Origin: a virus
Strand: one strand, 5' to 3'
IMG/VR virus record: IMGVR_UViG_3300020469_000009
Length of the DNA stretch: 64,000 bases
Shown here: in pieces, positions 12,033 to 30,049 of the stretch
Position numbering within the stretch: position 1 is the first letter of the stretch
Layout: each line of letters starts with the position of its first letter
Notes under the pieces: generated by a model
Databases searched by the model: none
Seen by the model: only the letters and a program-made list of their open reading frames with translations
Told to the model about the DNA's origin: nothing
Made by a program: the position numbers and the translations under genes

Positions 12033-12611
12033 ATGAATAAGGACGATTTTGTAATTGAATTACCTGGATTTGAATTTGATAAAGATAGATTGATAGACTT
12101 TATGAATTCAGATGTATTAGGTGATTGGAGAGAGCTAAACCATTTTCCTATGAAAGGGCTAAGTAATGAATTTAATCTTGGTGGTACTTTTCTTATGGAA
12201 GGTGGTGGTTATATGTTAAAAGAATTAGAGACAAAACATGTTGACCATGTACGTCATATATATGACCAAGTAAATCCAAATATATTATTGTGGGCAAAGA
12301 TGGCTTTAAAACCAGCAAACTTTTTAAAATATCCACCCTATATGAAATTAGCAAAACATAAAGATAGATTAAGAACAGGTAGTATTCACTTTCCATTAGG
12401 ACCAGGTGAACCTACTAATTTTTATGATGATGACTATAATTTAATATATCAACATGAACATAATGGTAATCCAGTTATTATGCACACTCACAAATATTTT
12501 CATGGTGTGGATAATAAAGATAAAGAAAGATATTGTTTTCAAATCACACTAAAACATGATTGGGAATTATTACATGAATGGAATGCGAATGGAACTCTCT
12601 ATACAAGTTGA
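12033..12611 (+). CDS. Putative Fe(II)/2-oxoglutarate-dependent oxygenase (cupin fold)
   Basis: HxD (KHKD), distal His (YFHGVDN) and downstream Arg (ERYCFQI). Confidence 0.7.
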   Translation: MNKDDFVIELPGFEFDKDRLIDFMNSDVLGDWRELNHFPMKGLSNEFNLGGTFLMEGGGYMLKELETKHVDHVRHIYDQVNPNILLWAKMALKPANFLKYPPYMKLAKHKDRLRTGSIHFPLGPGEPTNFYDDDYNLIYQHEHNGNPVIMHTHKYFHGVDNKDKERYCFQITLKHDWELLHEWNANGTLYTS

Positions 12612-13146
12612 ATCAGTAGACCCTACTCAAATGAACTCTATGCAAATGTTAGAGCTGTTTGAATTTTGTGCTGAAGCCTCTCAAGAAGATTTGCCACCAG
12701 CAAAAAATATGGAAGTAAAAGATTATGAAAATAAACCAGAAACTTTATTACATAAATTATGGATATCAAAAGAATATGATAGATTGTTTTTAGGTTGGCA
12801 AGGAGAAAGATTAGTTGGTATTTCAGCCTGTTATAGGTTAAATAAAAAGGTTATGATATGTGGTTGCCGTTCTTGGACAGTACCAGATATGAGAACTAAA
12901 TATGTTCATGGTAATCATATATTTCCAGAACAATTTAAGTATGCCAAAAATGAAGGATGTCATGCAGCTTGGTTTACTTTTAATGATTATAATGTATGGC
13001 TATACAAATTTTTAAAAAGAATAAGTGAAGGTAAAGCTACAGCATTTGGTATGAAAAATTCAGATACATATAAAGATATGACATTTGTACCTGGTCAGAT
13101 GTTAATAAAAAATACTACTCAAATGGTTGCTATAAAAAAATTATGA
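12556..13146 (+). CDS. GNAT-like acyl/acetyltransferase (true start probably ATG 12589)
   Basis: LFLGWQGERLVGISAC, WTVPDMR, AKNEGCHAAWFTFNDYN resemble GNAT motifs D/A/B. Confidence 0.55.
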   Translation: MIGNYYMNGMRMELSIQVESVDPTQMNSMQMLELFEFCAEASQEDLPPAKNMEVKDYENKPETLLHKLWISKEYDRLFLGWQGERLVGISACYRLNKKVMICGCRSWTVPDMRTKYVHGNHIFPEQFKYAKNEGCHAAWFTFNDYNVWLYKFLKRISEGKATAFGMKNSDTYKDMTFVPGQMLIKNTTQMVAIKKL

Positions 13147-13883
13147 TACCCGTATTTGCTCCATTAAAAGAACAATTAGATTTTAGTGAACACAAAATTG
13201 TGGAAGAACTATTAGCTACTCATATTGATAAACATAGTGTATTAGCTACAACTACATTTGAAGATGGACAATCTAGATGGAAAGGCGTAATGTCTTTTGA
13301 AGATGAAAAATTTGCTAAAACAAAAGACGTAATTCATTATGAAGATTCAAGTGATACACATCGGTCTATAATTAGAGGAATGGACACGTTTTGGATGACT
13401 AATCTTACTTATCATGATGACCGTTCAAAATATGAAAGTTGGGATTATCATAGAACAATACCATTGTGGGTAGAACATCAACATCCTTGGAAGTTCAGAG
13501 AAGATTTAAACATTCCTTATACTCAAGCTGTAATTCAAATGTTGCCATTTGAATATGTCACAACAGTAAGATGTATTTTACAGCAACCACCATCAATTGG
13601 TGTAATACACGCTGATTCTGGTAAGAAAATGAATCAACAATATTATGCTGATGGCAATGGTTCTATAACTTTAAATGTTTTAGCCGGTGGTGCTAATCTT
13701 TGGGTTGAAACAGATACTGGTGAAAAAATGATTGATGAATCTAAATGGAAGGTTTGGCATTTTGATGATTCAAATCCGCATTGTACCACAGAGACAAAAT
13801 CAAGAAGAATACAAATAAGAGTATTTGGAAAATTGAAATCAGACTATACAGAATTGCTAGACTTAGAACACGCCTTATTATAA
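13143..13883 (+). CDS. Asp/Asn beta-hydroxylase-like Fe(II)/2OG oxygenase
   Basis: VRCILQQPPSIGVIHAD (HxD), WHFDDSNPH (cf. FDDS..H of the AspH family), RRIQI. Confidence 0.7.
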   Translation: MIPVFAPLKEQLDFSEHKIVEELLATHIDKHSVLATTTFEDGQSRWKGVMSFEDEKFAKTKDVIHYEDSSDTHRSIIRGMDTFWMTNLTYHDDRSKYESWDYHRTIPLWVEHQHPWKFREDLNIPYTQAVIQMLPFEYVTTVRCILQQPPSIGVIHADSGKKMNQQYYADGNGSITLNVLAGGANLWVETDTGEKMIDESKWKVWHFDDSNPHCTTETKSRRIQIRVFGKLKSDYTELLDLEHALL

Positions 13884-13904
13884 GTGATTGATTTCTTATA
13901 ATAA

Positions 13905-13950
13905 AAAAGTGAAAAAAAACCTTTACAATGACCTTGTTTTATGATAAGAT
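13905..13950 (+). promoter_or_regulatory. Sigma70-type (early) promoter with UP-like A tract
   Basis: TTTACA (13922-13927), 17 bp spacer ending in TGn, TAAGAT (13945-13950). A tracts upstream; AGGAG SD at 13968-13972. Confidence 0.75.
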
Positions 13951-13980
13951 AACATCATAAATTAAACAGGAGCAAACTAT

Positions 13981-14187
13981 ATGTCTAACACTATCACTTC
14001 AGAATTCGCTTTTCACAACACACACCCAAAAGATTTATTCCCCATATTTGACAATTTCAATATAGTATTTTTTAAATTTTTGGATATTTCGGACCAAGGG
14101 GCTTTAGTTTTTCAACTAACTTTTTCATCCAAAATTGACTTTCAAAACTTCAATAATTTCCTCAAAGGGGACAATTCAAATTATTAA
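13981..14187 (+). CDS. Small Phe-rich hypothetical protein (68 aa), probably early-expressed
   Basis: Own sigma70 promoter and strong SD; stop overlaps that of the convergent gene. Confidence 0.65.
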   Translation: MSNTITSEFAFHNTHPKDLFPIFDNFNIVFFKFLDISDQGALVFQLTFSSKIDFQNFNNFLKGDNSNY

Positions 14188-15200
14188 ACCGGTTTAGCCT
14201 TTGGCGAAAACGCTTTAGGATATACAGCAACTCTTGAATTTTTAATTCCAGCACTATTTCTGTTATTTCTAAAACCTGCTACATAAGTAGGTTCATATTC
14301 ACCACCAGGAATTTGTGGATTAATAATTTTATGATTTGAAACTATTTCGTATGTATCACCTTTTTTCTTTAAAGTCATTGGACCTTGATGAAATTCATCT
14401 ACATTATATGGTGAAGGTTTTTTACCTGCTTCTGGTCCATACACAGTATTCTTTTTTACAGTTGGGTCTTTTACGGTTCTTTTAAATGCATCTCCACTTC
14501 GTAATCCATCAGGTCTTTCATCTTTTACAGCATCTATAAAGTCTTGAGCTTTTTTATTTTTCTTTAATTTTGGGTCTTTTGAAATTCCACCATACTGCAT
14601 AAAATTTTTTGGTCCAGTTCCGTCTTTATGTGATATAAATCCAACTTGAGTTCTACCGTCTACACCTAAAAGACAAAAGTCTGACTTAGGCACTTTATCA
14701 CCACGATAAGGTGGTTGTGAAATAATGTCTGATGCTTTTACTATTCTTTTACCAACTTTAATATTTAGATAAGGTGTTCCATCTTTATCCATAGCAGCAT
14801 GAAACAAATTATGAAATGCAGTTAAAGCCATATTTTCTTTTGCAGTAGATTTGCCCTTGGGAACGCCACCTAAGTCTGGAGATTTGTAAAAGTCTTTCTC
14901 TTTACCCATATACATAGGTTCACCTTTGTAAAAGAATTTCACCGCACCTTGGTTTCTGATAGGTTGTTCTAGAGTTTGTTGCATAGATTGTACACCATGC
15001 TCTACACCATTTACTTCTATTTTTTTATCTAAAACAATTAGACCTTTTGTAGTTAAAAACTCTTTTCCATCTTTAATTTTTTGAATAATAATAGGTAAAC
15101 GACCTTTTCTCTTAGAATCAGCTAAGTCTAACCAAGTAAATTCTGGTTTAGAAGCTTCATCTAAAAATTCATTAAATTTTTTGTGTATTTTTGTTTTCAT
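14184..15200 (-). CDS. Putative PD-(D/E)XK-type nuclease with a capsid-targeting-like N-terminus
   Basis: PKSDF...GFISHKDG resembles a restriction-endonuclease-like catalytic core. N-terminal KKFNEFLDEA resembles the T4 internal-protein targeting peptide. Confidence 0.5.
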   Translation of the reverse strand: MKTKIHKKFNEFLDEASKPEFTWLDLADSKRKGRLPIIIQKIKDGKEFLTTKGLIVLDKKIEVNGVEHGVQSMQQTLEQPIRNQGAVKFFYKGEPMYMGKEKDFYKSPDLGGVPKGKSTAKENMALTAFHNLFHAAMDKDGTPYLNIKVGKRIVKASDIISQPPYRGDKVPKSDFCLLGVDGRTQVGFISHKDGTGPKNFMQYGGISKDPKLKKNKKAQDFIDAVKDERPDGLRSGDAFKRTVKDPTVKKNTVYGPEAGKKPSPYNVDEFHQGPMTLKKKGDTYEIVSNHKIINPQIPGGEYEPTYVAGFRNNRNSAGIKNSRVAVYPKAFSPKAKPV

Positions 15201-15981
15201 TTTTCCTCAATAACATTATAAATGGTTTTACTGGGTCTACCTCCCACCATTTTTCTCCAGGAAATGCATTACCTGGTCTATGGTGATGGTTGTTATGCCA
15301 ATTTTCTCCTAATGCTATTGGTAGCATCCAAGGTGTATTTTTGCTATCTTCTCCAGTATCATAAGTTCTATATCCACTCATATGATTCCAATAATTACTC
15401 ATATTAGTACTAAATACACTCATGAATCCTGGCACAACACCTAAGAATAATAATGCATTAAGTCCGCCAAAAGCGAAAAGCAAAGCATAGTAAGACAGAA
15501 TAATAAGATGATACCAATCGTGAAAAACAACCTGCACTTTATCTCTAATCATATGACGACCATACATTAAAGCTGCACTTGGTTTGTCTCTAAACAATTT
15601 ATCATCATAGAACGAAAACAAGATTTTAAATCCATGTTCGTGAGGACTATGTGGATCATAGCCTTTATCTGTATAATGGTGGTGCTGTCTATGCATCATC
15701 ACCCACGCTAATGGCGAACCGGTATTTGCGAGTATGCCAAGTAAGGAAAAAGCATACTCGACTATCTTATAAGTCTTAAAAGACCTATGAGACAATAGTC
15801 TATGATATGTAAAATTAATTCCCAAAGCTATTATTGCAAACCACATAGCAAATGCTGCTACCCACCAACCAGTTGCAACTGGTAAAGTTATGGCATAAAT
15901 AACTCCGGCTAAAAGAATGAGATGCTGATATGGAAACCATTCAGACCTCGGACGCATATATTGTTTAATTAAGTTTATCAT
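15172..15981 (-). CDS. Membrane fatty-acid desaturase (delta-9, DesC/OLE1-like)
   Basis: Three His boxes (HRLLSH, HRQHH, HNNHH), GENWHNNHH, D.DPHSP, hydrophobic segments. Confidence 0.93.
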   Translation of the reverse strand: MINLIKQYMRPRSEWFPYQHLILLAGVIYAITLPVATGWWVAAFAMWFAIIALGINFTYHRLLSHRSFKTYKIVEYAFSLLGILANTGSPLAWVMMHRQHHHYTDKGYDPHSPHEHGFKILFSFYDDKLFRDKPSAALMYGRHMIRDKVQVVFHDWYHLIILSYYALLFAFGGLNALLFLGVVPGFMSVFSTNMSNYWNHMSGYRTYDTGEDSKNTPWMLPIALGENWHNNHHHRPGNAFPGEKWWEVDPVKPFIMLLRKNENKNTQKI

Positions 15982-15985
15982 AAAT

Positions 15986-16005
15986 TATTTATTCCGCTAT
16001 AAATA
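15986..16005. promoter_or_regulatory. Back-to-back late promoters: AATAAATA (-, desaturase) and TATAAATA (+, GNAT-to-hydroxylase operon)
   Basis: Located at 15986-15993 (-) and 15998-16005 (+). Confidence 0.8.
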
Positions 16006-16015
16006 TATTTTTATT

Positions 16016-16705
16016 ATGGGAACAATAATGCGTCAACTTTCTATTGAAGACAAAGACCAAGTCTACGACCTAATGATGCGTAGATATATTCAATTGTCTA
16101 AATCACCAGTTCAATCCAGAAGCAATGAAAATGTTCAAGAACAATATGACCTATTCATAGATGAACATATGAATTTTCAATGGACTGATGGCCTCCCTAA
16201 TGAGGTTAACAAGGGCAGGGCTTTCGGTGTATTCCATGATGAAGAATTAATGGTAATACTCACACAAAAATTCTCAACAACTAGAATGCCATCTTGGTAT
16301 GTGGGTAATATGATTTCTTGTCCATCACTGAAGAGTTATAAAACTGTTGCTGAATATACTGCTAAGTTATTAGATATGGCTGTATCAGATGCAGAAAAAT
16401 ATGGGTATACTCAGTTTTATTGGGTCACTTCCACAAAAGGATGGAATAAAAGAGAACAACTTTGGTATAACTATAGTGATACCTTTAAAAGGTATAATGT
16501 CTTTATTGAGAATGTAATACCAGCAAACACTGAACCTAAGTTTGATTATGAAAAAGTTATTACTGGTTATAGGAAACATCCAATAGATTTGGCAATTAAG
16601 TCAGCAAGAATAAAGCCACATCTAAGACATGAAACATTTAAAGAGTATTTAAAAGTAGATTATGTACCATTGCAGGATTTAGATAATGAGTTTGGAAAAA
16701 GTTAA
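16016..16705 (+). CDS. GNAT-like protein
   Basis: MRQLSIEDKDQV, RAFGVFHDEELM, KLLDMAVSDAEKYGYTQFYW pattern. Confidence 0.5.
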   Translation: MGTIMRQLSIEDKDQVYDLMMRRYIQLSKSPVQSRSNENVQEQYDLFIDEHMNFQWTDGLPNEVNKGRAFGVFHDEELMVILTQKFSTTRMPSWYVGNMISCPSLKSYKTVAEYTAKLLDMAVSDAEKYGYTQFYWVTSTKGWNKREQLWYNYSDTFKRYNVFIENVIPANTEPKFDYEKVITGYRKHPIDLAIKSARIKPHLRHETFKEYLKVDYVPLQDLDNEFGKS

Positions 16706-17294
16706 AATATTAGATGATAGCTGGAAAGAACCAGTAAAAGAATTACTAAAACTTAGAGATACCCATAGTGGTATGTCAAAAGAATCTATAGATTTTGATA
16801 ATATTTGGAGTGACGAATATTTAAACAAATACTTTGATCCAAATGAACCATATTTTCTATGGGGATATATTGATGATGGAAAATTAACTAGTATGTGTGG
16901 TGTATATAAATGGAAACTTATTCCAAGATGCACAACTACAATTTTTGTATCTGATTATTCAGTTGGCATGGGCATATTTGCTATTGTAGAAGATATGTGG
17001 AAAGTTCATTTCAAGTGGATGTTAGATAATGGTATCACACAGGGATTTACTTTTTCAGATGCAGAAACTACTCTTGATGCAGTCACAGCAAAAACAAGAA
17101 TACAAAAAGCTAAAAAGAAACTATTACAAAGAGCTGGTGATAATCGATGGTTTACACAAGTAGAAGAAGTAGTAAAAGCAAATACAGATACGTCTTGGAC
17201 AGGATTTAAAATTATAACTGGTAATCGTAAATGGCCAGTTGATATGGTAATTAAAAGCTACACTTACACAGGAAATTGGTTTGAAAAAGACTGA
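16686..17294 (+). CDS. GNAT-like protein, likely paralog of 16016-16705
   Basis: FLWGYIDDGKLTSM; C-terminal VEEVVKANT...IITGNRKWPVDMVIK parallels IENVIPANT...VITGYRKHPIDLAIK of the upstream gene. Confidence 0.5.
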   Translation: MSLEKVKILDDSWKEPVKELLKLRDTHSGMSKESIDFDNIWSDEYLNKYFDPNEPYFLWGYIDDGKLTSMCGVYKWKLIPRCTTTIFVSDYSVGMGIFAIVEDMWKVHFKWMLDNGITQGFTFSDAETTLDAVTAKTRIQKAKKKLLQRAGDNRWFTQVEEVVKANTDTSWTGFKIITGNRKWPVDMVIKSYTYTGNWFEKD

Positions 17295-18291
17295 GGATAT
17301 TATATCATTGGCAAATGGTAAACCTATTGCAGTCACAGGTAATGGTCGGTGTGGTACATCATTCATAAATAGACAATTATACAGACATGCAGTTATTAAT
17401 AGTTCAGAACCTCAGGGCTTTTTAGAAGAATTCATGAGACTTTCCAGAGGTATATATGAATATCAATGGGAACCTATACCAAGAGTAAAAGATTTTAGCC
17501 AGGAATCAGCTTATACTGGTTATTTGTTTTCTGCTCTTAGTAATAAAAGCAATAAAAAATATTCAGGATTTAATTTAACAACTGATGAAGCTTTAGAATA
17601 TTTAAGACCAAGAATAGAAAAACTGAAAAAGCATGGGTTAGATAATCTACATTTAAAAATTTTTCCAATAGATTTTTGTGTATTACATAAAATTGATGAA
17701 GAGTTTTGTAAAGAATTATTGCATCACTACCATTGGATATTTTTGTATAGAGAAGATTGGAAAGATGCATTTTCAAGTCTTTTATTTGGTGCAACTAGAG
17801 ACAAGTTTCATTTCTATGATGATGAAGATATTATGAATACCGATACTTGGAAATATGGTGGGGCGAAAGATGCAAAGAGTTTTGTAAATCCTTATACCGC
17901 AACTGCAATAATGGACCAATCTTATGGTATGATAAATTCTATATTTACAAAAGAAATCTCTTGTTCTATAATAGAGATGAAAGAAATTCAAGAAATACCA
18001 GACAATCATGCTGAGTTTTTAAATACAAACTGTCCATATAAACCAAATGATTTTTGGACACAATCACCAAAAATGTTTAGCAATAAAAAAGAGTTTACCA
18101 ATCAAGCTTTAATAAACTTAGATAAAGCTACAGATAAAGCTGAAAAAAGACTCAAACAACTAGTTGCTGGTTCAAATGGATTGATGACTTTAGATGGTGA
18201 CTCTTTGAGAATGGATGATTCAAAATTAAGAGATGGTAAACCTTATTTAGAGTATAATATAGGTACACCATTTTTGGAGTATAATATTTAG
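17281..18291 (+). CDS. Putative PAPS-dependent sulfotransferase (Stf0/LpsS-like)
   Basis: 5'-PSB-like loop IAVTGNGRCGTSF and 3'-PB-like WIFLYREDWKDAFSS. Confidence 0.6.
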   Translation: MKKTEDIISLANGKPIAVTGNGRCGTSFINRQLYRHAVINSSEPQGFLEEFMRLSRGIYEYQWEPIPRVKDFSQESAYTGYLFSALSNKSNKKYSGFNLTTDEALEYLRPRIEKLKKHGLDNLHLKIFPIDFCVLHKIDEEFCKELLHHYHWIFLYREDWKDAFSSLLFGATRDKFHFYDDEDIMNTDTWKYGGAKDAKSFVNPYTATAIMDQSYGMINSIFTKEISCSIIEMKEIQEIPDNHAEFLNTNCPYKPNDFWTQSPKMFSNKKEFTNQALINLDKATDKAEKRLKQLVAGSNGLMTLDGDSLRMDDSKLRDGKPYLEYNIGTPFLEYNI

Positions 18292-19260
18292 ATGGAACAT
18301 TTTTACACACACAATAATCATTTTAAGTGGGGATATAATAAGAAATGGTTTACACAAAGACAAAAACCTCAAGACAGATATACTGTTGAATTTGGTGTTG
18401 TTGATAATCCTTTGGATTTTAAACAAGAGTGTTATAGAGCTGCAAGATTAATTGATGAGTATGCTTATGGTGTGGGTACTTCTATTGAACTTATGTTTAG
18501 TGGTGGTTCAGAATCTGAAGTAATGCTTCGTTCTTTCATAGACCAAGATATAAGAGTCAATATTAATATTATGACTTATGACCCACATTTGAATTTACAT
18601 GATATATCTCATGCAATAGTATTTTGTGAAACAAATAATTTAGATTATGTACTTCATGAAGTACCAATATTACAGTGGTTGCATGAAGAAGGTCTTAAAT
18701 ATGGGTCACTATCACAGTCTATTTCACCAAGAATTCTGCCCCACATGCTGCTTATGGAGAGACTAAGTGAAGGTATACCAGTCATGGGAATGGGTGAATG
18801 TTATATTGCACATGGAAATTTAAAACAATACTATGATTTAGTGGACGGTAAAATTATGCGAAATACTAAAGATGATTATGAACCAGCACCTTGGTATTTT
18901 TATGAAAGAGAAAAAATTAATAGTTGGTATCGATTTGCACAAAAACAAAACATTAAAGCAATACCAGGATTTTTCCAATATACACCAGAACTTATGTATG
19001 CTTTCCTTGATGAAGAAATGACAAAGCAATTAGCAATGAATAATTGGCCTGGTAAATTATCTAACACTAGTACTAAAAAAGAAATATATTCAAAACACTT
19101 TCCTGGAATACTACAAAAGAGAAAGTACGATGGATTTGAACAATTAGCTAAAATGGATAATCAATTAAGACCTACATTACAAAGTGAGTATGGCGACTAT
19201 TCTCAAGAAGTAAAAATTGAATATAATGAATTAATAAAACAACTGGAAGGCGATAAATGA
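18292..19260 (+). CDS. PP-loop (adenine nucleotide alpha-hydrolase / asparagine-synthetase-like) enzyme
   Basis: LMFSGGSESE, a variant of SGGxDS; later VMGMGE. Confidence 0.6.
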   Translation: MEHFYTHNNHFKWGYNKKWFTQRQKPQDRYTVEFGVVDNPLDFKQECYRAARLIDEYAYGVGTSIELMFSGGSESEVMLRSFIDQDIRVNINIMTYDPHLNLHDISHAIVFCETNNLDYVLHEVPILQWLHEEGLKYGSLSQSISPRILPHMLLMERLSEGIPVMGMGECYIAHGNLKQYYDLVDGKIMRNTKDDYEPAPWYFYEREKINSWYRFAQKQNIKAIPGFFQYTPELMYAFLDEEMTKQLAMNNWPGKLSNTSTKKEIYSKHFPGILQKRKYDGFEQLAKMDNQLRPTLQSEYGDYSQEVKIEYNELIKQLEGDK

Positions 19261-19988
19261 AAAAGATGTTAATTACAGGTGCTTCATCTGGTATAGGTGC
19301 AGCTTTTGTAGACCATTACAAAGATAAGTTTGAACTTATTACAACTGCAAGAACCGAGAAAGAATGGATTACTGACCCAGGCGATATAACTGACAAAGAA
19401 TTTAGAGCTGAATTAATTAAAAAACATAATCCTCATGTAGTGATTAATAATGCTGGTGGATTTAGAGAAACATTTGATGAGACATACCACTTAAATACTG
19501 TATCTGCAGGTGAAATCTTTGAAGGATTTTATGATAAGATGCTACCATATACTCATATATTTAATGTAATATCTTACGGTATTAGAATGTATGGCTGGCA
19601 AGATATGAGTAGAGAACGTTCTTATTACTATTCAAGTAAAAAAGCTTTATATGAGTTTGTCAATAATGTAAATATGTCTAAACATAGACCAGTACATGTA
19701 TGTAATTTAATACCGGGTGTTGTAAAAACTGATGCTGTAGATGCTGATATTTTAAGAAAAACTCAAATCAATAAAGGTATAGTAGAAGAAAATACTTTAG
19801 AGTACTATCTCAAAGAGAATTATCATAAAGGTAGAACACCATTCCATGCTTTCTTTCCTATTGCTAAAGAAGATTTACCAATTATATCAGAATTCATAAT
19901 GACACTTCCAGATTACATAAATATAGATGATATTGTAATAGGAATGTTTAATAAACAAACATTTCCTGGTAAACCAACAACACAATGA
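19257..19988 (+). CDS. Short-chain dehydrogenase/reductase
   Basis: LITGASSGIG, INNAG, YxxxK (YYSSK), PGVVKT. Confidence 0.9.
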   Translation: MKKMLITGASSGIGAAFVDHYKDKFELITTARTEKEWITDPGDITDKEFRAELIKKHNPHVVINNAGGFRETFDETYHLNTVSAGEIFEGFYDKMLPYTHIFNVISYGIRMYGWQDMSRERSYYYSSKKALYEFVNNVNMSKHRPVHVCNLIPGVVKTDAVDADILRKTQINKGIVEENTLEYYLKENYHKGRTPFHAFFPIAKEDLPIISEFIMTLPDYINIDDIVIGMFNKQTFPGKPTTQ

Positions 19989-19995
19989 GGAGTGT

Positions 19996-20679
19996 ATGCA
20001 AACAGGCGATTTTAATAAAGCCGCTGAATTATTAGAAACTACAGCTAATTTTGATATTATAAAGATTAAAGCTGGCCTTGATATTCAAATGTATCAAGAA
20101 ATTCTAAAAGAAGTAGAAGCTAAATTTCCTTTTTATAAAAAAGATAATCAAGAAACTTATGAAGGTTTAGCCTTGCAGTATTTTGATGAAGATAATCCTT
20201 ATTCTGACGGTGTAAATCAAGCTTCAGGTTCTGATAAGTATAGTAGTTATAAAGATGTTGGTTATGAAAAATACTTAAAAACTGGTGAAGGACATTTTGA
20301 TGATTGGCAATATGATAGAAGTAAACTAAACGATGCTGGTAAATTGTTTCAGCCATTTTTTGATTTATGTAAAGAAAAGTTTCCTGAATTACATTTGTAT
20401 AGAGCAAGATTATTAAAAACACATCCTAGACATTTTTGTTTAGACCATGTTGATGAACCAAAGTCATTACGAATACACCTACCTATTGTATCTAATAAGT
20501 GGGCAATAATGTATTTTTTAGATAGACCATATTATTTAAAAGCTGATGGTAGTGTTTACTTATGCAATACTGGTCATAAATTCCATTCATTCTATAATTT
20601 TTCTTCAGGTTTATTTAGAACTCACATTGTTGTAAATGCTAAATTAAAATCAGATATGGGTCAATATGTGGTGGGCTAA
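19996..20679 (+). CDS. Asp/Asn beta-hydroxylase-like Fe(II)/2OG oxygenase
   Basis: RARLL...HVD...RIHLPIVSN...ADGSVY..NT...HSFYN...RTHIV. Confidence 0.8.
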   Translation: MQTGDFNKAAELLETTANFDIIKIKAGLDIQMYQEILKEVEAKFPFYKKDNQETYEGLALQYFDEDNPYSDGVNQASGSDKYSSYKDVGYEKYLKTGEGHFDDWQYDRSKLNDAGKLFQPFFDLCKEKFPELHLYRARLLKTHPRHFCLDHVDEPKSLRIHLPIVSNKWAIMYFLDRPYYLKADGSVYLCNTGHKFHSFYNFSSGLFRTHIVVNAKLKSDMGQYVVG

Positions 20680-21430
20680 ATTAGATTTTACAGTTAATGT
20701 TGATGCAATGGTAAAGCAGCTGGAAGTTGCTAAAGCTATGTATAAGGCAATATATGATGACCACGGTTATGGACCACAATTTGGTGGATTGTCTATTTTG
20801 TCAGACAATGGTGACCCTCTTAGAGGAATGATATCAGGAAAACAAGCATGGGAAGAAGGAAAAATTAATTTTGAATTGGCAATAAAAAAAGGTATCAATT
20901 TTGAATATAACTATGATAAGAAAACTAAGTTATGTATAGGAGAAACTGAAAGAGTAATTGATTTACTAGATGATATGGGTATGACTCCAAGAAGAGCAAG
21001 ATATACTGTGCTTAAACCTGGTGGAAAGAGTTCTATACATAATGATTCAAAAAGCGGTGAATATGCTTGTAGGATTCACATACCTTTAATTACAAATAAA
21101 AAATGTACACACTCTTTATTTTTAGAAGATGGTACAAAGATAGATGAAAAACATTTTCCTGCTGATGGCAGTGTTTACATTATGCAAGTAAATAATGTTC
21201 ACCAAATTATAAATCCTACTGAAAAAGAAAGATGGCATTTTCTGTGTAGTTGTTATGATTCTACAGGATATAGTCCATTTAAAATATCTAACAATGAGTT
21301 AAACACTGTAAAGGTAAAGGCAGAAGCTTTTAAGAATGGTGTAAAATGGACGGAAGGTGGTGGTAAATTATTTGAAGATATTACTCATACTTCTCAAGTT
21401 CATCAGCCAGACCAGGAAAGTAATACTTAG
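20666..21430 (+). CDS. Asp/Asn beta-hydroxylase-like Fe(II)/2OG oxygenase
   Basis: RARYTVLKPGG...HND...RIHIPLITN...ADGSVY...HQIIN...ERWHF. Confidence 0.8.
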   Translation: MWWAKLDFTVNVDAMVKQLEVAKAMYKAIYDDHGYGPQFGGLSILSDNGDPLRGMISGKQAWEEGKINFELAIKKGINFEYNYDKKTKLCIGETERVIDLLDDMGMTPRRARYTVLKPGGKSSIHNDSKSGEYACRIHIPLITNKKCTHSLFLEDGTKIDEKHFPADGSVYIMQVNNVHQIINPTEKERWHFLCSCYDSTGYSPFKISNNELNTVKVKAEAFKNGVKWTEGGGKLFEDITHTSQVHQPDQESNT

Positions 21431-21800
21431 TTCCAACTTTAGCTTGCAGTTCTACAAACTCATCATATGTCATTTCACTAATTGTATGTTCTACAGTACC
21501 ACCGCCAGAATCAGGTATTGATTGTAAGATAGGTTGAATTGTATTTAACATTTCAGTAGCTGAAGATTCATCTTTCATAACACGATAAGTGTTCATTTGA
21601 AACTCACCATTTTTTCTATCTTTTTCATCTAATAATCTGATAAAGAAAAGCATTTTGTTTTGTTCAACATAACCACCTTGTGATTCTAGTAATGCTGATA
21701 ACTGATCTCTAGACATATGTGAATATATGTATAAACCAAACTCGGCTTCTAAGACTGTTTCGTCACTTGGAACTGATAGTGTAGTTTTTAATGCATGCAT
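21381..21800 (-). CDS. Hypothetical protein (139 aa), late-expressed
   Basis: ORF with a perfect TATAAATA 4 nt upstream. Confidence 0.7.
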   Translation of the reverse strand: MHALKTTLSVPSDETVLEAEFGLYIYSHMSRDQLSALLESQGGYVEQNKMLFFIRLLDEKDRKNGEFQMNTYRVMKDESSATEMLNTIQPILQSIPDSGGGTVEHTISEMTYDEFVELQAKVGTKYYFPGLADELEKYE

Positions 21801-21804
21801 ACAT

Positions 21805-21812
21805 TATTTATA
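21805..21812 (-). promoter_or_regulatory. Late promoter TATAAATA
   Basis: 4 nt upstream of ATG 21800. Confidence 0.8.
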
Positions 21813-21959
21813 TCATGATTGAAGATACCAGATAACTGCAACTGCTAGAGTTGGTGGAATAATAGCAATGCAAGAAGGTATTAAAACCATATATAACATT
21901 GGATTTTTTAACATCCAATCCATATCATCTTCATGTGTCTTTTTTATTGCCTTTTTCAT
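21813..21959 (-). CDS. Small single-TM protein (48 aa)
   Basis: Manual translation MKKAIKKTHEDDMDWMLKNPMLYMVLIPSCIAIIPPTLAVAVIWYLQS*; fills the intergenic gap. Confidence 0.5.
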   Translation of the reverse strand: MKKAIKKTHEDDMDWMLKNPMLYMVLIPSCIAIIPPTLAVAVIWYLQS

Positions 21960-21982
21960 AGTATAATTATACCAAGCTTCAA

Positions 21983-21990
21983 AATAAATA
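21983..21990 (+). promoter_or_regulatory. Late promoter AATAAATA upstream of the glycosyltransferase operon
   Basis: Followed by AAGG and ATG 22008. Confidence 0.65.
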
Positions 21991-22007
21991 GATTATAAGG
22001 TTATAAT

Positions 22008-22688
22008 ATGTTTCCAGCGAAAATAAATTTTGTGTGTTTGAAATATGGCACAAAATATTCATCACAATATGTAAATACACTCTATAGTATGCTTTCGAGG
22101 CATGTTAGTATTCCATTTGAATTACATTGTATGACTGAAGACCCAACCGATATAATACCTGAAATAAAAATTGTTGAGCTTCCAGACCTAGGTTTAGATA
22201 AATGGTGGTGGAAAATGTTAATGTTTAAAGAAGATTTTTTTGAAGATGGTATGTTTTTAGACTTAGATATTATAATCAAAAACGATATTACTCATTTATA
22301 TGCGCCTACTAACTACATGAGAATACTTTATACAAACTGGATAGACTTAGGTGAACAAAAAAAGTGGACAATTGGTGATAACTATAAGTATTGTGAATTA
22401 AATTCATCAGTGATGTGTTGGGATAAAGATACTAAAAGACAGTTTATATGGGATGACTTTATAGAAAATAGAGATAAGATTTTATTTTTATATAGAGGAA
22501 TAGATAATTATTTAGAAAATAGACAAAAAAGAAATATAAGAGTATATCCAAACGATCAAACATTTTGTTATTCATATTGGAATTGCGATAAAGATTATAG
22601 GCCAGAATCTAGTATAATTCTATTTGACTACAATGAAAAAAAGCAACATCAAATTAGAAAAAAGTGGGTAAAAGAACTATGGGTCTAA
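22008..22688 (+). CDS. Glycosyltransferase (GT-A fold, DxD)
   Basis: CLKYGTKYSSQYVNTL, WWWKM, FLDLDIII, LNSSVMCW. Confidence 0.85.
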   Translation: MFPAKINFVCLKYGTKYSSQYVNTLYSMLSRHVSIPFELHCMTEDPTDIIPEIKIVELPDLGLDKWWWKMLMFKEDFFEDGMFLDLDIIIKNDITHLYAPTNYMRILYTNWIDLGEQKKWTIGDNYKYCELNSSVMCWDKDTKRQFIWDDFIENRDKILFLYRGIDNYLENRQKRNIRVYPNDQTFCYSYWNCDKDYRPESSIILFDYNEKKQHQIRKKWVKELWV

Positions 22689-23326
22689 TGCAACAAACAA
22701 AAATGATGGAACTTTTTCCTATTCCTGTATGGGAATGGAGCAGACAATTAGCTGAAATATCTCAAGACTACCCACATCGTACAGAAGACTTTGCTAAATC
22801 ATATTCTAGAAATCAATTTATAGCTAAAACTTGGATGCTAGAAGTTTTAAAAGTATATGTTGATATTGACAGAAGTACTAAATGGTGGATTATGGGTTCA
22901 TGGTATGGTTCAATTACAGTACCACTTATACGAAGTACATTCAAACCAAAAGATAAAATACACTTAGTAGATTTTGATAATGAAGCTTTAGATATAGCAA
23001 AAAAACTACATGGTGATTATGCAATTTCAACACATCATATAGATGTAAACTGGGAGATGAAACGTCTTTCAAAGTTGAAAGCAGACATTTGGATTAATAC
23101 TAGTTGTGAACATATGTACCCTTTAACAGAAGAGTTTAATCCAAATGGTCTGTGTGTTTTTCAATCTACTAATTTTGCTAAAGACCCATCACACATTAAT
23201 TGTTGTAAAAATTTAGATGAGTTTATTGAACAATGCAATTTTAAAGAAATACTTTATTCAGGAGAAAAACCATTCCATGATTGGGATGATATTCACAAAA
23301 GATTTATGGTAATAGGATATAAATGA
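22664..23326 (+). CDS. SAM-dependent methyltransferase-like protein
   Basis: IMGSWYG (motif I), LVDFD, INTSCEHM, KRFMVIG; a family often found next to phage GTs. Confidence 0.7.
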   Translation: MGKRTMGLMQQTKMMELFPIPVWEWSRQLAEISQDYPHRTEDFAKSYSRNQFIAKTWMLEVLKVYVDIDRSTKWWIMGSWYGSITVPLIRSTFKPKDKIHLVDFDNEALDIAKKLHGDYAISTHHIDVNWEMKRLSKLKADIWINTSCEHMYPLTEEFNPNGLCVFQSTNFAKDPSHINCCKNLDEFIEQCNFKEILYSGEKPFHDWDDIHKRFMVIGYK

Positions 23327-24105
23327 TAAATGTATTTACTGTAAGGTGGGGAACTAAATATAGTATAGATTATGTAAATCGTTTGTACAATATGGTGAAA
23401 AGAAATTTAAGAGCTGATTTTAAATTTTACTGCCAAACTGATGATACAAATGGTATGGACACTAATATAGTTGCATTACCTTTTTTAGATGAATTACCAA
23501 ACTCAACACCAGAAAAAATGTATGCATCTGAAGAATTTATAACTGGATTACCAAGACTTTGGGATAGACCTAAACTAAATTATTGGAAACCAAATGGGTG
23601 GGGAATTACTGGACAAAAAATGTATTTTGATTTAGACTTAGTAATTCAAAATAGTTTATTGCCTATCATTAAATTGCATAAAGACAAACCCTTAATAGGT
23701 AGGTCTTGGTGGCATAATATGAATGATGAAAAAAAACCTTTTTGGCTTAAAAATTACGGTGCCAGATGTAATGGTGGTATGATGATGTGGAATGATGAAC
23801 AAGGTAAACCATTATGGCGTGATTTAAAAAAGAATGCTGAAAAGATTTATTTTATATGCACTGGTGGTTCTGATAATTGGATTACATATAGACACTTTGA
23901 TAAATTTGATAAGATACCACCTAAATATTATTACTCTTTTAATAGAGGATGTGAATGGCCACATGATACAGATATGCATAGACATAGAAAGAATAAAATA
24001 GTATGTGTTTTTAATACTGATGAATATGGTAGAAACAAACACTTTCAATTAGAACTACATCAAGCAGAAAGGAATTACAAATGGGTACAAGAGTACTGGC
24101 AGTAA
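23323..24105 (+). CDS. Glycosyltransferase (GT-A fold, DxD)
   Basis: VRWGTKYSIDYVNRLYNMV, YFDLDLVI, CNGGMMMW. Confidence 0.85.
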   Translation: MINVFTVRWGTKYSIDYVNRLYNMVKRNLRADFKFYCQTDDTNGMDTNIVALPFLDELPNSTPEKMYASEEFITGLPRLWDRPKLNYWKPNGWGITGQKMYFDLDLVIQNSLLPIIKLHKDKPLIGRSWWHNMNDEKKPFWLKNYGARCNGGMMMWNDEQGKPLWRDLKKNAEKIYFICTGGSDNWITYRHFDKFDKIPPKYYYSFNRGCEWPHDTDMHRHRKNKIVCVFNTDEYGRNKHFQLELHQAERNYKWVQEYWQ

Positions 24106-24749
24106 GAATTGGAGACAAATATGGACCTGAATATGAAGATTATTTAAGGTCTAAAATACCTAATATAGATTTTGTAAGAGTATCAGATTGCAGATTTAAA
24201 CTACAATGGAATAAAGTAGCATTTATGTCATTGCCAACAGAAGACCCAGTTGTTGTAATTGATATTGATATTTTACTTATGAATGACTATATGGAATTGA
24301 TAGATTATCCTATTCAGAAAGGTCAGTTTCTAGGATTGAAGGCGTGGTGGAAAGATACTGCTCATCCTGACTATAGTCTAAATGGGGCTTTTTACAAGTA
24401 TTATCCCAAAGACTGTAAATATATTTACAAGAAATTATGCTCTGATCCTGAGTACTGGATGAACCACTACATTGGACGCGGCATAACACATGGTCCAGTG
24501 AATGGTGAACAATATTTTGTAGAGGATTCAGTAAAAGAACAGTTAGAACTAATATATGTGCCATCATCTTGGTTTGGTAAAATGATTTTAAATCCAGGAA
24601 GTGAATGGCTAAATGATTGTAATGACGCGTATCCTGGTGATTATTTTTATGATAATAAAGATGAAGTGTTTAATCCTTCTGTGAAGCTTGTGCATTTTCA
24701 AAAGACACGTTCGCTTCATGAATTATGGAAAACAACTCCACAGGAGTAG
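24081..24749 (+). CDS. Glycosyltransferase (GT-A fold, DxD)
   Basis: RIGDKYGPEY, QWNKV, VIDIDILL, LNGAFYK, NGEQYF, KLVHF. Confidence 0.82.
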   Translation: MGTRVLAVRIGDKYGPEYEDYLRSKIPNIDFVRVSDCRFKLQWNKVAFMSLPTEDPVVVIDIDILLMNDYMELIDYPIQKGQFLGLKAWWKDTAHPDYSLNGAFYKYYPKDCKYIYKKLCSDPEYWMNHYIGRGITHGPVNGEQYFVEDSVKEQLELIYVPSSWFGKMILNPGSEWLNDCNDAYPGDYFYDNKDEVFNPSVKLVHFQKTRSLHELWKTTPQE

Positions 24750-25425
24750 ATGCTTTTCTTATTCTTGATTTAATATCTTTACTAGCATCTCTTACGGCCG
24801 GAATGTCGAATACTTCGATTTTCATTCTAAATAAATCTTCTTGACTGTAGTTTTTGGCCATGTGTTCTACAGATATAGTTGGTACTTCAACAGGTACCTC
24901 TTCTACTTTTTCAATTACTTTTTCTATAACTTCTTTTTCAGATTCAATATTACTACGTAGCTCATGTTCTATCTGAGCTCTTATTTCATCTTCATCAATT
25001 TGACTATTAAGAATACCGCCAGAGTCTTTCCAGTCTTTAAACTGTTGATATTCTTCTAAAGCTGCTTCTTCAGCTTGCCAAAAAACCTTTGTATCTTCAT
25101 CAATATCATCTATTGTGTATTGCTGTAATATTTTTGAAAAGAATGTACCAGGACCAGAAGCATTGGCTGCATGATTTTCTACTCTACCCCAACCTTCACT
25201 ATCAAAGTATTTAGCTTGTACTAAAGTTCTTTCTTCATCTAGCCATCTTACATTTTCAATTGTAAGTTTACCATCAATTAATTCTCTTCTTTGACCTTGG
25301 TTGTGTAATACAGCTCCACGTTTGACCTGCATCTTTTCACGAGTTGTTTCGTTTCCTTCACGGTCATACATCTGTATATCTGCCGATGTAAATTCTGGTT
25401 TATCTGTTATGTAATCGTCTGACAT
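24670..25425 (-). CDS. Hypothetical late protein (possible fibre assembly chaperone)
   Basis: Late promoter 4 nt upstream; lies downstream of the fibre genes. Confidence 0.55.
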   Translation of the reverse strand: MSDDYITDKPEFTSADIQMYDREGNETTREKMQVKRGAVLHNQGQRRELIDGKLTIENVRWLDEERTLVQAKYFDSEGWGRVENHAANASGPGTFFSKILQQYTIDDIDEDTKVFWQAEEAALEEYQQFKDWKDSGGILNSQIDEDEIRAQIEHELRSNIESEKEVIEKVIEKVEEVPVEVPTISVEHMAKNYSQEDLFRMKIEVFDIPAVRDASKDIKSRIRKASTPVELFSIIHEANVSFENAQASQKD

Positions 25426-25438
25426 ATATTATTTATTC

Positions 25439-26434
25439 CTACGCCGGATTAGCAAGCGAGAGATAATAAGTCGCTTGTGCCGTTGCTGAACCTGACGGTG
25501 TTGAAGTTGATGTATAAGTTGGGTCACTAAAAGATTGTGTTTGGTTATCAGTTGTCTGTCTAGTATCAGTGAAAGAACCTCTATTTGAACTACCACTTGG
25601 AGCGGAAGTCACCACTGAATATTGTAATTTAGATGCTGCTACTTTATTAATAAGTGCAGGAATACATGCTTGGTCTATAAAACTTGTGGCTTGGTATGAA
25701 CCAGTTTCATCAATTGATGCTATTTCTTTTACTACTGTACCATTCCACATTACAGGTTTTATATCACTACCAGGAACTGAACCTAATGCTGTTTTTATCC
25801 AAAGTTTATGAGTTGTTGTACCAGCTGAATATGTAGTATCACTATGCCAAGTACCACAGTCTACCCAAGTACCACTTCCACCATTTGTTGGAGCATTTGT
25901 ACCTATTCTATATGAACCTACTTCATCACCTGAATACATATCTACTAAACATTGAGAAATAATTTCGTCAAAATAATCATCATTATATCCAGATGCTGTT
26001 CTAAGTGTAGCAGGTGATACAAATTTTAAGTATGAATATTGGTCATTAGCAGAAAATGATGTACCTAAAGTAGATGCTGACCTATTTTGATGATATGCAT
26101 AAGTTGCAACAGTGCTTGTACCTAAACCTGGAAATGAAGGATAGTCATCACCACCAGAGTTATTTCTTGCTTGTGTATTTGCTTGTTGAGTAGAAGCTGT
26201 ATCTGTGGCTGAACCAATAGATGTCCAACCAGAAACTGAACCAACATTTAAAGCTCCTGCAGGACCTGTACCAGCAGATGTTTGTCCGTTTGCAGCATTT
26301 ACACCAGAAGATGTATGATAATATTGTAGGAAAGATGCATAACGTTTTCGGATATTATATTGTAAACGATCCAACTCGCCGTCGGTCATTTGTTTCAAGC
26401 CTGAAGTTCCGTTTACTTTTAATGGTCTTGCCAT
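25439..26434 (-). CDS. Virion structural / tail-fibre-associated protein (S/T/G-rich)
   Basis: Composition and position after the fibre gene; N-terminus MARPLKVNGTSGLKQMT. Confidence 0.6.
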   Translation of the reverse strand: MARPLKVNGTSGLKQMTDGELDRLQYNIRKRYASFLQYYHTSSGVNAANGQTSAGTGPAGALNVGSVSGWTSIGSATDTASTQQANTQARNNSGGDDYPSFPGLGTSTVATYAYHQNRSASTLGTSFSANDQYSYLKFVSPATLRTASGYNDDYFDEIISQCLVDMYSGDEVGSYRIGTNAPTNGGSGTWVDCGTWHSDTTYSAGTTTHKLWIKTALGSVPGSDIKPVMWNGTVVKEIASIDETGSYQATSFIDQACIPALINKVAASKLQYSVVTSAPSGSSNRGSFTDTRQTTDNQTQSFSDPTYTSTSTPSGSATAQATYYLSLANPA

Positions 26435-28614: not shown

Positions 28615-28621
28615 ATATTAT

Positions 28622-30034: not shown

Positions 30035-30049
30035 GTTTTATTTATTTCA

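Follow-up and report, generated by a model that had tools for sequence, protein, structure and literature searches.

What does a block of modifying enzymes do inside the structural module of a marine phage, and is it, as the original prediction held, the writer of the DS[DE] tripeptides in which the tail proteins of the same virus are enriched? The enzyme island at positions 12033-24749 of the window (the whole stretch of 64,000 nucleotides that was analysed) is genuine and belongs to a divergent, uncultured marine T4-like myovirus. Its predicted location between gp16 and the fibre genes, mostly on the opposite strand, is confirmed by PHROG matches: portal, tube, sheath, TerL (9775-11616) and TerS (11621-12007) lie upstream on the minus strand, TerS forming one flank, and the tail genes form the other, with gp15, gp13/14 and wedge/fibre proteins from 26443; 15 of the 18 ORFs run on the plus strand. 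Relatives with TerL 74-96% identical keep the gene order of the whole island. Its genes, two conserved neighbours and the late-type motifs are the following.

12033..12611, plus strand: possible cupin or Fe/2OG oxygenase, soluble, 192 aa (hhalign to the 20666 family, 66% over the barrel region)
12556..13146, plus strand: GNAT-like protein, 196 aa (HMM of its relatives against Mosig_00073, 'N-acetyltransferase domain', 3.5e-8)
13143..13883, plus strand: clade-restricted orphan, 246 aa, candidate Fe/2OG enzyme (invariant HxD...H...R pattern)
13981..14187, plus strand: ORF of 68 aa, with a homolog found only in the closest relative, L001
14184..15200, minus strand: basic protein, 338 aa, pI 9.7 (phrog_13937, a family without assigned function, 7e-42)
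15172..15981, minus strand: membrane fatty-acid/lipid desaturase (Pfam FA_desaturase, 2.3e-14, 54 bits against a cut-off of 29.7)
15986..16005: back-to-back divergent late-type motifs, AATAAATA on the minus strand and an exact TATAAATA on the plus strand (15998)
16016..16705, plus strand: GNAT-fold acyltransferase, 229 aa (AF2 model and Foldseek)
16686..17294, plus strand: paralog of 16016, 202 aa, GNAT fold by paralogy (blastp 8.5e-7, hhalign 97%)
17281..18291, plus strand: sulfotransferase-like P-loop protein, 336 aa (language-model feature match alone)
18292..19260, plus strand: PP-loop ATP-pyrophosphatase-like protein, 322 aa (profile against TtuA-type thiolase, E 0.03, SGGSES region)
19257..19988, plus strand: short-chain dehydrogenase/reductase, SDR (Pfam adh_short, 1.3e-10)
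19996..20679, plus strand: Asp/Asn-beta-hydroxylase-like cupin (hhalign 96% to the 20666 family, a paralog)
20666..21430, plus strand: Fe/2OG oxygenase of the Asp/Asn-beta-hydroxylase family (Pfam PF05118, Asp_Arg_Hydrox, 25.7 bits, gathering score 22.6)
21381..21800, minus strand: acidic protein, 139 aa, with its own TATAAATA at 21805-21812
21983..21990, plus strand: late-type motif AATAAATA, 17 nt upstream of the glycosyltransferase cassette
22008..22688, plus strand: GT-A (GT8-like) DxD glycosyltransferase, first gene of the cassette (PHROG 1962, glycosyltransferase, 2.2e-9)
22664..23326, plus strand: class-I SAM methyltransferase-like protein (profile against methyltransferase/spermidine synthase chains, E 0.04-0.1)
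23323..24105, plus strand: paralogous GT-A DxD glycosyltransferase (blastp 1.3e-14 to 22008, hhalign 100%)
24081..24749, plus strand: GT8-like glycosyltransferase, the most conserved gene of the cassette (AF2 model and its structural matches)
24670..26434, minus strand: two conserved neighbours outside the island, an acidic 251-aa and a Ser/Thr-rich 331-aa protein, without a family match

The ORFs at 13981-14187, 14184-15200 and 21381-21800 were absent from the original prediction; 14184 is found only in L001, L002 and L014, and the 21381 gene and its motif are both kept in relatives.

Most of the enzyme classes predicted for the island are supported. The three DxD glycosyltransferases stand: the DLD motif of the paralogs 22008 and 23323 is invariant (in 12 relatives for 22008) and aligns in 22008 with the DxD of LgtC, a weak match yet the best PDB sequence match. 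The model of 24081 (pLDDT 66, pTM 0.67) is GT-A/GT8-like, with matches to GlyE, glycogenin, UGGT, PBCV-1 A64R and LgtC at E ~1e-4; its structural neighbours include enzymes of protein-linked glycans, namely GlyE, glycogenin, the Skp1 galactosyltransferase and the PBCV-1 capsid enzyme A64R. For the methyltransferase the support is weak to moderate, an HMM of 22664 matching Mosig_00090, annotated 'methyltransferase', at 1.2e-18. All three GNAT-like proteins were recovered: 16016 by its model (pLDDT 81, pTM 0.75; top Foldseek matches all GNAT acetyltransferases, best E 4e-8), 16686 by paralogy, and 12556, conserved across lineages A-C, by its homolog in Pelagibacter phage Mosig. The sulfotransferase call agrees with an Atlas feature search against Stf0/Sulfotransfer_3 clusters (0.97, 191/256 features in common), and 17281 had no Pfam or PDB sequence match. 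The PP-loop enzyme, likewise supported weakly to moderately, has aligned paralogs in L013 with weak QueC/NAD_synthase Pfam matches. Pfam bears out the SDR, whose PHROG matches are FabG-like and epimerase families, and the desaturase, which also has three His boxes, TM-like segments and a match to the NCBIfam DesA family at 2.3e-20.

The four predicted Fe/2OG hydroxylases fared unevenly. Two hold as Asp/Asn-hydroxylase-like cupins, 20666 and 19996, the HMM of the latter matching a Mosig Asp_Arg_Hydrox protein at 1.2e-10; the other two remain unproven candidates. The similarity of 12033-12611, which had no match in Pfam, PHROG or NCBIfam, is suggestive of a cupin. The orphan 13143 has relatives in only 21 clusters among 5.8 billion proteins, none of the 21 with a Pfam domain, and found no PDB or family match; residues H156, D158, H206, H213 and R222 are invariant, and hhalign against the 20666 family gives 13%. 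The class assignments of the sulfotransferase, the PP-loop protein, the methyltransferase, 12033 and 13143 carry weak scores and are best read as putative.

When is the island expressed? The motif NATAAATA is the published late promoter of cyanomyoviruses (PMC2984593), and 20 of its 28 copies are intergenic, upstream of both structural genes and island units. In relatives the motifs are conserved at near-constant spacing, while the flanking bases have diverged. The divergent pair at 15986..16005 is kept in L014, L002, L005, L007 and L022; its AATAAATA stands 4 nt from the desaturase ATG, a spacing kept as far as G001; and the motif at 21983 keeps a spacing of 16-17 nt in L081, L084, L101, L085 and L091, again with diverged flanks. 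Because these are gp55-type NATAAATA promoters, transcription of the island is read as probably late. The claim that every operon is preceded by such a motif held for 15986, 15998 and 21983 and failed for 12021, which reads TATAAGTA and does not match; an exact motif does lie at 12012-12019, on the minus strand and pointed at TerS, and none was found upstream of the first unit (12033-13883). Conserved late-type motifs thus stand ahead of three transcription units.

Most likely the island builds a decorated glycan late in infection, an ability that the gene classes support, as predicted. It comprises two layers. One is a core that is old and has a wide distribution: a single cassette (22008-24749) of three soluble GT8-like DxD glycosyltransferases plus a SAM methyltransferase, with the adjoining Asp/Asn-hydroxylase-like cupins and the membrane desaturase. 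The other consists of the lineage-specific genes of 12033-19988 minus the desaturase, that is, three GNAT-fold acyltransferases, the sulfotransferase-like, PP-loop and SDR proteins, and two possible cupins. A short methyl-capped glycan may be assembled by the cassette in the cytoplasm from nucleotide sugars of the host, and the lineage-specific enzymes would decorate it with acyl, sulfate or hydroxyl groups. For the desaturase, the simplest view is that of a lipid auxiliary gene in its own right.

GNAT, PP-loop, SDR, cupin and sulfotransferase proteins are also typical tailoring enzymes, and might instead make an acylated, sulfated or hydroxylated small molecule or lipid, unrelated to protein or lipopolysaccharide glycans, from a permissive insertion site. 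The same site in relatives indeed holds radical SAM/SPASM enzymes, a TctA transporter and a nitronate monooxygenase, and insertions are known to concentrate in the g15-g18 interval (PMC2984593). We nevertheless consider this very improbable: the island showed nothing that would supply a scaffold (NRPS, PKS or precursor peptide), three glycosyltransferases and a methyltransferase point to a glycan, and synteny over TerL identities of 74-96% points to a working unit, not to random cargo.

On what would the glycan be placed? Our preferred reading, to which we give a probability of roughly 45%, is that the island acts late in infection and decorates the phage's own tail-side proteins, which are made simultaneously and would be a likelier acceptor than host lipopolysaccharide. 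Several observations speak against a virion glycan. Lipo-oligosaccharide is also an acceptor for GT8 enzymes such as LgtC, the first unit is without a late motif, and the PF05118 family also contains lipid hydroxylases, e.g., LpxO and OlsC. The enzymes might instead remodel the host envelope, altering lipopolysaccharide, aminolipids or membrane lipids, by which superinfection would be blocked, progeny kept off debris, or membranes kept functional. The glycosyltransferases of the comparable host-recognition cluster (HRC) in pelagimyophages were interpreted in this way, as modifying the host O-chain (PMC7029224), cyanophage desaturases are established lipid auxiliary genes (PMC5776448), the SDR matches a FabG-like reductase, and Mosig carries the same enzyme families with a tail that lacks the sequon. 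We regard the envelope as a possible, though rather doubtful, target. Late-type promoters fit exclusion functions poorly; TM segments, membrane anchors and signal peptides are lacking in all island proteins but the desaturase; no sugar-nucleotide synthesis, flippase or ligase genes were seen within the island; and the cassette keeps a close and lasting linkage to tail genes and the Ser/Thr-rich neighbour. In lineages A-C, as in the DS[DE]-poor L118, the 251-aa and 331-aa proteins lie between the tail genes and the cassette, and L113 has only the Ser/Thr-rich one; in lineages D/E both come after the tail genes, with the cassette more distant.

The tripeptide itself is well supported as a real, sequon-like trait of the tail proteins. 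The predicted number of about 180 sites was reproduced, with 181 DS[DE] observed against 16 expected (11-fold) and 137 DSD against 6 (23-fold). The serines are encoded by both Ser codon families and the motif has no flanking context. ESD was counted 0 times and DTD twice, and no DS[DE] falls in the tube, portal, gp6, terminase or any island enzyme. The sites are kept better than the average residue (61/61 at 74-93% identity, 38/61 at 53-75%), and the enrichment acts at the protein level, clade-wide. Since the tail surface bears a conserved, context-free, Ser-centred tripeptide, some virion modification in this clade is plausible. The general O-glycosylation sequon of Bacteroidetes, said to have been described by Fletcher and colleagues in 2009 as D-(S/T)-(A/I/L/V/M/T), is likewise a three-residue, context-free motif in which an Asp immediately precedes the Ser that is modified. 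It is served by a periplasmic system with a lipid-linked glycan; in our phage, in contrast, position three is taken by Asp or Glu, Thr is ruled out and the candidate enzymes would be cytoplasmic.

The island is a possible DS[DE] writer, in which the GT-MTase-GT-GT cassette, with or without a hydroxylase, would modify Ser or Asp on exposed tail, baseplate, fibre and neck proteins. In its favour, besides the late-type motifs and the properties of the tripeptide, the cassette lies beside tail genes wherever enough sequence of a DS[DE]-rich lineage is available (A-C, L013, L092 and G001). However, we judge this version unlikely, and the comparison of lineages does not support it. Only the cassette, a cupin hydroxylase and the desaturase are common to all DS[DE]-rich lineages; the 12033-19988 genes minus the desaturase are conserved in the nearest three lineages only and are missing from the DS[DE]-rich D/E and L013, radical SAM enzymes taking their place in DS[DE]-rich lineages beyond the nearest three. 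The DS[DE] trait is a single clade synapomorphy, so its co-occurrence with the cassette is not independent evidence; both being clade-wide, there are no independent gains or losses with which to test co-variation.

Outside the clade, those island genes that might serve as a writer across the clade are present without the enrichment, which contradicts the original prediction. Mosig has the core families in the same neighbourhood, yet its tail proteins (7 kb) hold 3 DS[DE] against 4.6 expected and no alternative sequon-like tripeptide. The uncultured contig L118/L120 carries the full cassette, again adjoining tail genes and the same Ser/Thr-rich neighbour, with a 24081 ortholog 49% identical. 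Whereas gp8 of our phage has 10 sites, that of the contig has 0, and 15 baseplate/tail proteins of the contig carry 4 against 3.2 expected; gp8, gp6, gp5, gp25, gp48 and gp53 have 0 each, and only a VrlC-like protein is above baseline. In L113 (ortholog 52%) the three flanking proteins have 0 sites. Identity to 24081 is 48-91% for the orthologs of all DS[DE]-rich lineages and 49-52% for those of L111, L113 and L118; the family comprises 712 protein clusters, and no subfamily of the tree is specific to DS[DE]. The acceptor site is not tied to DS[DE] by evidence, and the island is not the sole candidate modifier, because other enzyme clusters occur elsewhere in this genome.

Soluble glycosyltransferases and a methyltransferase beside structural genes are found also with chlorovirus PBCV-1 A064R, whose glycosyltransferase domain (A64R) the 24081 model resembles (TM 0.5), and reportedly in the virion glycosylation loci of Che8/Corndog-type mycobacteriophages (Freeman and colleagues, 2023, cited in PMC11256854). 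The mycobacteriophage targets are reported to be C-terminal regions of capsid and tail-tube subunits, not a dispersed tripeptide; hosts and phage lineages are unrelated to ours, and the glycan of our phage is a putative one.

The best explanation of the island is that it represents this clade's form of the marine T4-like hyperplastic region or HRC inside the structural module, known from pelagimyophages and cyanomyophages (Zaragoza-Solas et al. 2020, PMC7029224) and, as the g15-g18 region of cyanomyoviruses, from Millard et al. 2009, as cited in PMC2984593. Here too it lies beside neck, tail and fibre genes and contains GT8-type glycosyltransferases, methyltransferases, Asp/Asn hydroxylases, acetyltransferases, a desaturase and a sulfotransferase, and the equivalent region of Mosig holds homologs of at least 7 island genes. 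Unlike the HRC, this block is not hypervariable in the nearest lineages, being collinear from 96% down to 74% TerL identity, and it is set apart by its conserved late-type motifs; unlike Mosig and more distant relatives, it accompanies DSD-enriched tail proteins. The desaturase, finally, resembles the cyanophage lipid desaturases vFAD (Roitman et al. 2018, PMC5776448) as a short membrane enzyme with three His boxes in a marine T4-like phage, and differs from them in the late-type motif just before its ATG.

In the original prediction, an island of enzyme genes at 12033-24749 would modify the DS[DE] tripeptide (Asp-Ser-Asp/Glu) of tail proteins. The underlying observation of island and motif is largely right, the motif is striking, and the island itself belongs to a known, recurrent kind. 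Most likely, the island specifies a late-expressed, cytoplasmic set of enzymes that would build and decorate a glycan, and we tentatively put the probability that it decorates virion proteins at somewhat under one half (about 0.45). The source is an uncultured marine T4-like myovirus, since the closest cultured phages, the cyanomyoviruses, share just ~51% identity in the portal protein, and DNA near-identical to the island was found in none of 50,697 phage records. PHROG matches place the T4-like structural module on the minus strand of the window, with the enzyme genes inserted inside it, after TerS and before the tail and neck genes:

Upstream of the island, minus strand, in window order: scaffold, portal (5704-7236), tube, sheath, TerL (9775-11616), TerS (11621-12007)
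12033-24749: enzyme island
26443 onward, minus strand: wedge/fibre-connector proteins, gp15 (30050-30916) and gp13/14, then VrlC-like, gp8-like, and gp7-like proteins

The island is filled by 18 ORFs, named here by start coordinate, with hardly any intergenic space; 15 of these are encoded on the other strand than the structural genes, and all island proteins but the desaturase are devoid of hydrophobic segments.

The abundant T4-like phages of the ocean commonly carry enzyme islands in their tail module, and the literature assumes host lipopolysaccharide as their target, of which we know of no demonstration in marine T4-like phages. The interval between the g15-side tail genes and g16-g18 was described as the hyperplastic region of cyanomyoviruses (PMC2984593), and in pelagimyophages the same position is taken by the host-recognition cluster, whose abundant GT8 enzymes are read as host O-chain modifiers (PMC7029224). 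As in these regions, non-structural enzyme genes of the island interrupt the structural module, with the neck/tail genes on one side and g16-g18 on the other. It also resembles the host-recognition cluster in that gene content at its site varies among related phages (one relative, L102, has no island between tail genes and TerS) and in its wealth of glycosyltransferases of GT8 type and of LPS-like tailoring genes. Decoration of the host envelope, the role read into the cluster, is rather unlikely for the island in our estimate. The conserved cassette of two glycosyltransferases flanking a methyltransferase and followed by a third (GT-MTase-GT-GT, 22008-24749) travels with the tail genes and with the neighboring gene for a Ser/Thr-rich protein (25439-26434).

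Searches of all island proteins with Pfam, PHROG, and NCBIfam profiles gave matches for just 4 to 5 of about 20:

14184-15200: unknown PHROG family
15172-15981: membrane fatty-acid desaturase (PF00487 score above threshold, three His boxes, TM segments)
19257-19988: SDR
20666-21430: Asp/Asn beta-hydroxylase-family Fe(II)/2OG oxygenase (PF05118, 25.7 bits against a gathering score of 22.6)
22008-22688: PHROG glycosyltransferase

Glycosyltransferases 22008 and 23323 are clear paralogs. Their D85-L-D87, unchanged across 12 sequences, corresponds in alignment to the DxD of LgtC, and the 24081 family has D61 and D63 as invariant residues. The model of 24081 (24081-24749), of moderate confidence (pLDDT 66), has a GT-A/GT8-like fold (Foldseek probability 1.0, TM 0.45-0.56 to GlyE, glycogenin, LgtC, and a family-8 protein), with UGGT and PBCV-1 A64R as further structural neighbors. 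None of the three proteins matches Pfam Glyco_transf_8 at E 0.01; they share a GT8-like fold and motif without being members of that family by profile. The confident model of 16016 (pLDDT 81) has the GNAT fold (Foldseek E 4e-8), 16686 is its paralog, and 12556 matches an N-acetyltransferase-domain protein of Pelagibacter phage Mosig EXVC030M (Mosig). The acyl-CoA pyrophosphate-binding motif Q/R-x-x-G-x-G/A is not evident in the translations of the GNAT-like proteins, nor is there a match to Pfam Acetyltransf; their acyl donor could be other than acetyl-CoA. By language-model features, 17281 clusters with Stf0/Sulfotransfer_3; 18292 has a weak PP-loop match across its SGGSES motif; and 22664 combines weak class-I methyltransferase matches with a solid match to the annotated methyltransferase of Mosig. 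Profile searches against PDB sequences returned weak matches for the GT, PP-loop, and MTase profiles and nothing useful for 24081, 17281, and 13143.

Most of the enzyme classes originally read from the sequence stand, the glycosyltransferase, GNAT, cupin, desaturase, and SDR assignments being supported by profile, model, or paralogy. Among the proposed hydroxylases, 19996 is a paralog of 20666, linked to PF05118 by profile-profile comparison only (96%). In the same comparison to the 20666 family, 12033 reached 66%, which is suggestive at best, and 13143 reached 13%; the latter is an orphan restricted to the clade, where its HxD...H...R pattern is invariant, and no relatives of it were detected elsewhere. 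These folds and families are observed, and the donor and the product are predicted. Lipid desaturases are an established auxiliary function of phages (PMC5776448). We regard a small-molecule or lipid product of the island as very improbable.

The claim of some 180 Asp/Ser sequons is borne out, as DS[DE] occurs 181 times in the window versus 16 expected from composition, and DSD alone 137 times versus 6. Copies of the motif are concentrated in the tail, baseplate, fibre, and neck proteins, where z-scores reach 26; portal, tube, gp6, terminase, and all island enzymes have none. ESD does not occur at all and DTD only twice, positions flanking the motif carry no information, and both serine codon families are used. 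Such features point to protein-level selection and a putative, very specific reader. A DNA-level cause in the form of a fixed 9-mer was rejected, TCA, TCT, and AGT being used roughly in proportion to background. The sites are kept position by position in relatives (61/61 at 74-93% protein identity and 38/61 at 53-75%), well above background residue identity. Enrichment was observed in every relative with TerL at least 64% or gp15 56-97% identical, wherever the locus has structural genes; tail-gene loci are enriched 7- to 20-fold and loci centred on TerL 2- to 15-fold, and baseline is reached where TerL identity is 56% or less. Traced over the whole window and loci L001-L021 and L081-L102, the enrichment marks an entire uncultured clade, with TerL identity of 64% or more. 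Nothing relevant on a DSD sequon, or on a virion sequon in phages, came up in the literature. In one DS[DE]-rich relative (L021, 11870-21515), four large proteins take the place of the sheath after TerL; they have no homolog in the window and contain 43 (in 1081 aa), 28, 16, and 7 copies of the motif.

Relatives down to 74% TerL identity have a collinear island, the whole block being common to the nearest lineages (A-C), and most of it is replaced in more distant DS[DE]-rich lineages; therefore, at most the shared core could be a clade-wide writer. This core, present in all DS[DE]-rich lineages with enough sequence, is the cassette in the order GT, small ORF, methyltransferase, GT, and 24081-like gene, together with the adjacent cupin hydroxylase and the desaturase. 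Elsewhere the island site holds radical SAM/SPASM enzymes, TctA, nitronate monooxygenase, and carbamoyltransferase (lineages D/E, L013, and L113-L119), with several radical SAM/SPASM enzymes in L092 and G001/L097, and PP-loop proteins, a TctA transporter, and nitronate monooxygenase in L013. At L092 16913-20860 and L097 5426-11102 and in L113-L117, genes for radical SAM/SPASM enzymes and for radical SAM enzymes of the B12-binding type follow one another in runs. Extension of contig L114 towards the structural genes passed through more than 45 kb encoding radical SAM and other enzymes beside the same GT cassette; the DS[DE] status of its phage is read from three unassigned flanking proteins only, because these >45 kb contain no tail genes. 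A desaturase homolog (35% identical) was also seen between two VrlC-like fibre gene pieces of a distant DS[DE]-rich relative (L096, 5405-6208). Two genes separate the tail genes from the GT cassette:

24670-25425, minus strand: acidic 251-aa protein
25439-26434, minus strand: Ser/Thr-rich 331-aa protein

Neither has family matches. Both occupy this position in the clade and in metagenomic contig L118, and the DS[DE]-poor L113 has the Ser/Thr-rich one only. These neighbors could be the real substrate or partners of the cassette.

If the island were the writer of the sequon, the two were expected to co-vary among related phages. Within the DS[DE] clade, cassette and enrichment are both fixed, and across the phages compared, the presence or absence of the cassette does not co-vary with the motif. 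In Mosig, homologs of the GT, methyltransferase, 24081-like, GNAT-like, hydroxylase, and desaturase genes adjoin the tail genes, and 7 kb of tail proteins contain only 3 DS[DE] versus 4.6 expected; these proteins contain no other sequon-like tripeptide, none exceeding 3.3-fold. L118/L120 has the full cassette in the same synteny, with a 24081 ortholog 49% identical, and its gp8 has 0 DS[DE] sites versus 10 in the window phage; gp5, gp6, gp25, gp48, and gp53 have none, and its tail proteins other than the VrlC-like one are at baseline (4 sites versus 3.2 expected). That VrlC-like fibre protein (L118 12881-18022, equal to L120 12195-17336) has 7 DS[DE] versus 1.25 expected, which may be an effect of repeats or else an ancestral or weaker version of the motif. 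In the L118 tail proteins, 34 of 37 DS dipeptides precede A, D, S, or N. Finally, L113 has a 24081 ortholog 52% identical and 0 sites in three flanking proteins. The conserved core is therefore not specific to the motif, and the result that the original prediction named as refuting it, the same island in phages with no motif enrichment, was obtained for this core. A possible opposite case, the motif without the island, is L021/L102, extremely DS[DE]-rich with no island between tail genes and TerS, on a contig just 18% complete and rearranged. The 24081 tree has a backbone without resolution and shows no DS[DE]-specific subfamily.

As judged by this comparison of genomes, the writer-sequon pairing appears weakened rather than supported. 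The motif could be explained otherwise, by metal binding, a host enzyme, or another phage enzyme. A change of cassette specificity within the DS[DE] clade is possible, and action of the island on DS[DE] specifically takes up a minor part of the probability given to virion proteins. In its concrete form, the GT-MTase-GT-GT cassette, perhaps with the adjacent cupin hydroxylases, would have gained in this clade O-glycosylation of Ser in D-S-[D/E], present ~170 times on exposed tail, baseplate, fibre, and neck proteins; synteny and motif statistics are observed, and this acceptor is a doubtful prediction. If true, no sequon-directed virion glycosylation in the cytoplasm would have preceded it among T4-like phages, and it would give a direct handle on the role of the enigmatic enzyme islands of marine myophages. 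The clade is a rare concrete test case, as a highly specific, position-conserved tripeptide on tail proteins stands beside a four-gene soluble sugar-transferase cassette with late promoters. The comparative result is also a warning that an island adjoining a motif is no evidence of joint function.

The published late promoter of cyanomyoviruses, NATAAATA (PMC2984593), has 28 copies in the window, 20 of which fall in the tiny intergenic fraction before gene starts, tail and fibre genes included. In the island it was found at these places:

Upstream of the desaturase (15172-15981): NATAAATA-type motif
Upstream of the 16016-21430 operon: exact TATAAATA
Upstream of the small gene 21381-21800: NATAAATA-type motif
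21983, upstream of the GT cassette: AATAAATA

The island motifs hold their position in relatives while adjoining bases diverge, and the predicted late timing of the motif-bearing units has good comparative support. A late motif had been claimed before each operon; this stands for the 16016 operon, the GT cassette, and the desaturase, where it is kept in relatives, and fails at 12021, which reads TATAAGTA and is no match. An exact copy at 12012-12019 points to the terminase gene, and the 12033 unit, unlike the four units listed above, has no NATAAATA immediately upstream.

Exactly 4 nt separate the end of NATAAATA from the annotated ATG of nine genes, a spacing kept in relatives including the distant G001:

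3793-3800, minus strand
12012-12019, minus strand
15986-15993, minus strand
21805-21812, minus strand
25430-25437, minus strand
28619-28626, minus strand
30039-30046, minus strand
47307-47314, minus strand
49667-49674, plus strand

If transcription starts at the distance usual in T4, the late mRNAs of these genes would be leaderless or nearly so; if not, their real start codons would be located further downstream. The desaturase and the 16016 operon are separated by two divergent late motifs, back to back at 15986-16005. In three relatives (L005, L007, and L022), the pair preceding the 16016-like gene overlaps as the palindrome TATTTATAAATA, and therefore one site may serve both strands.
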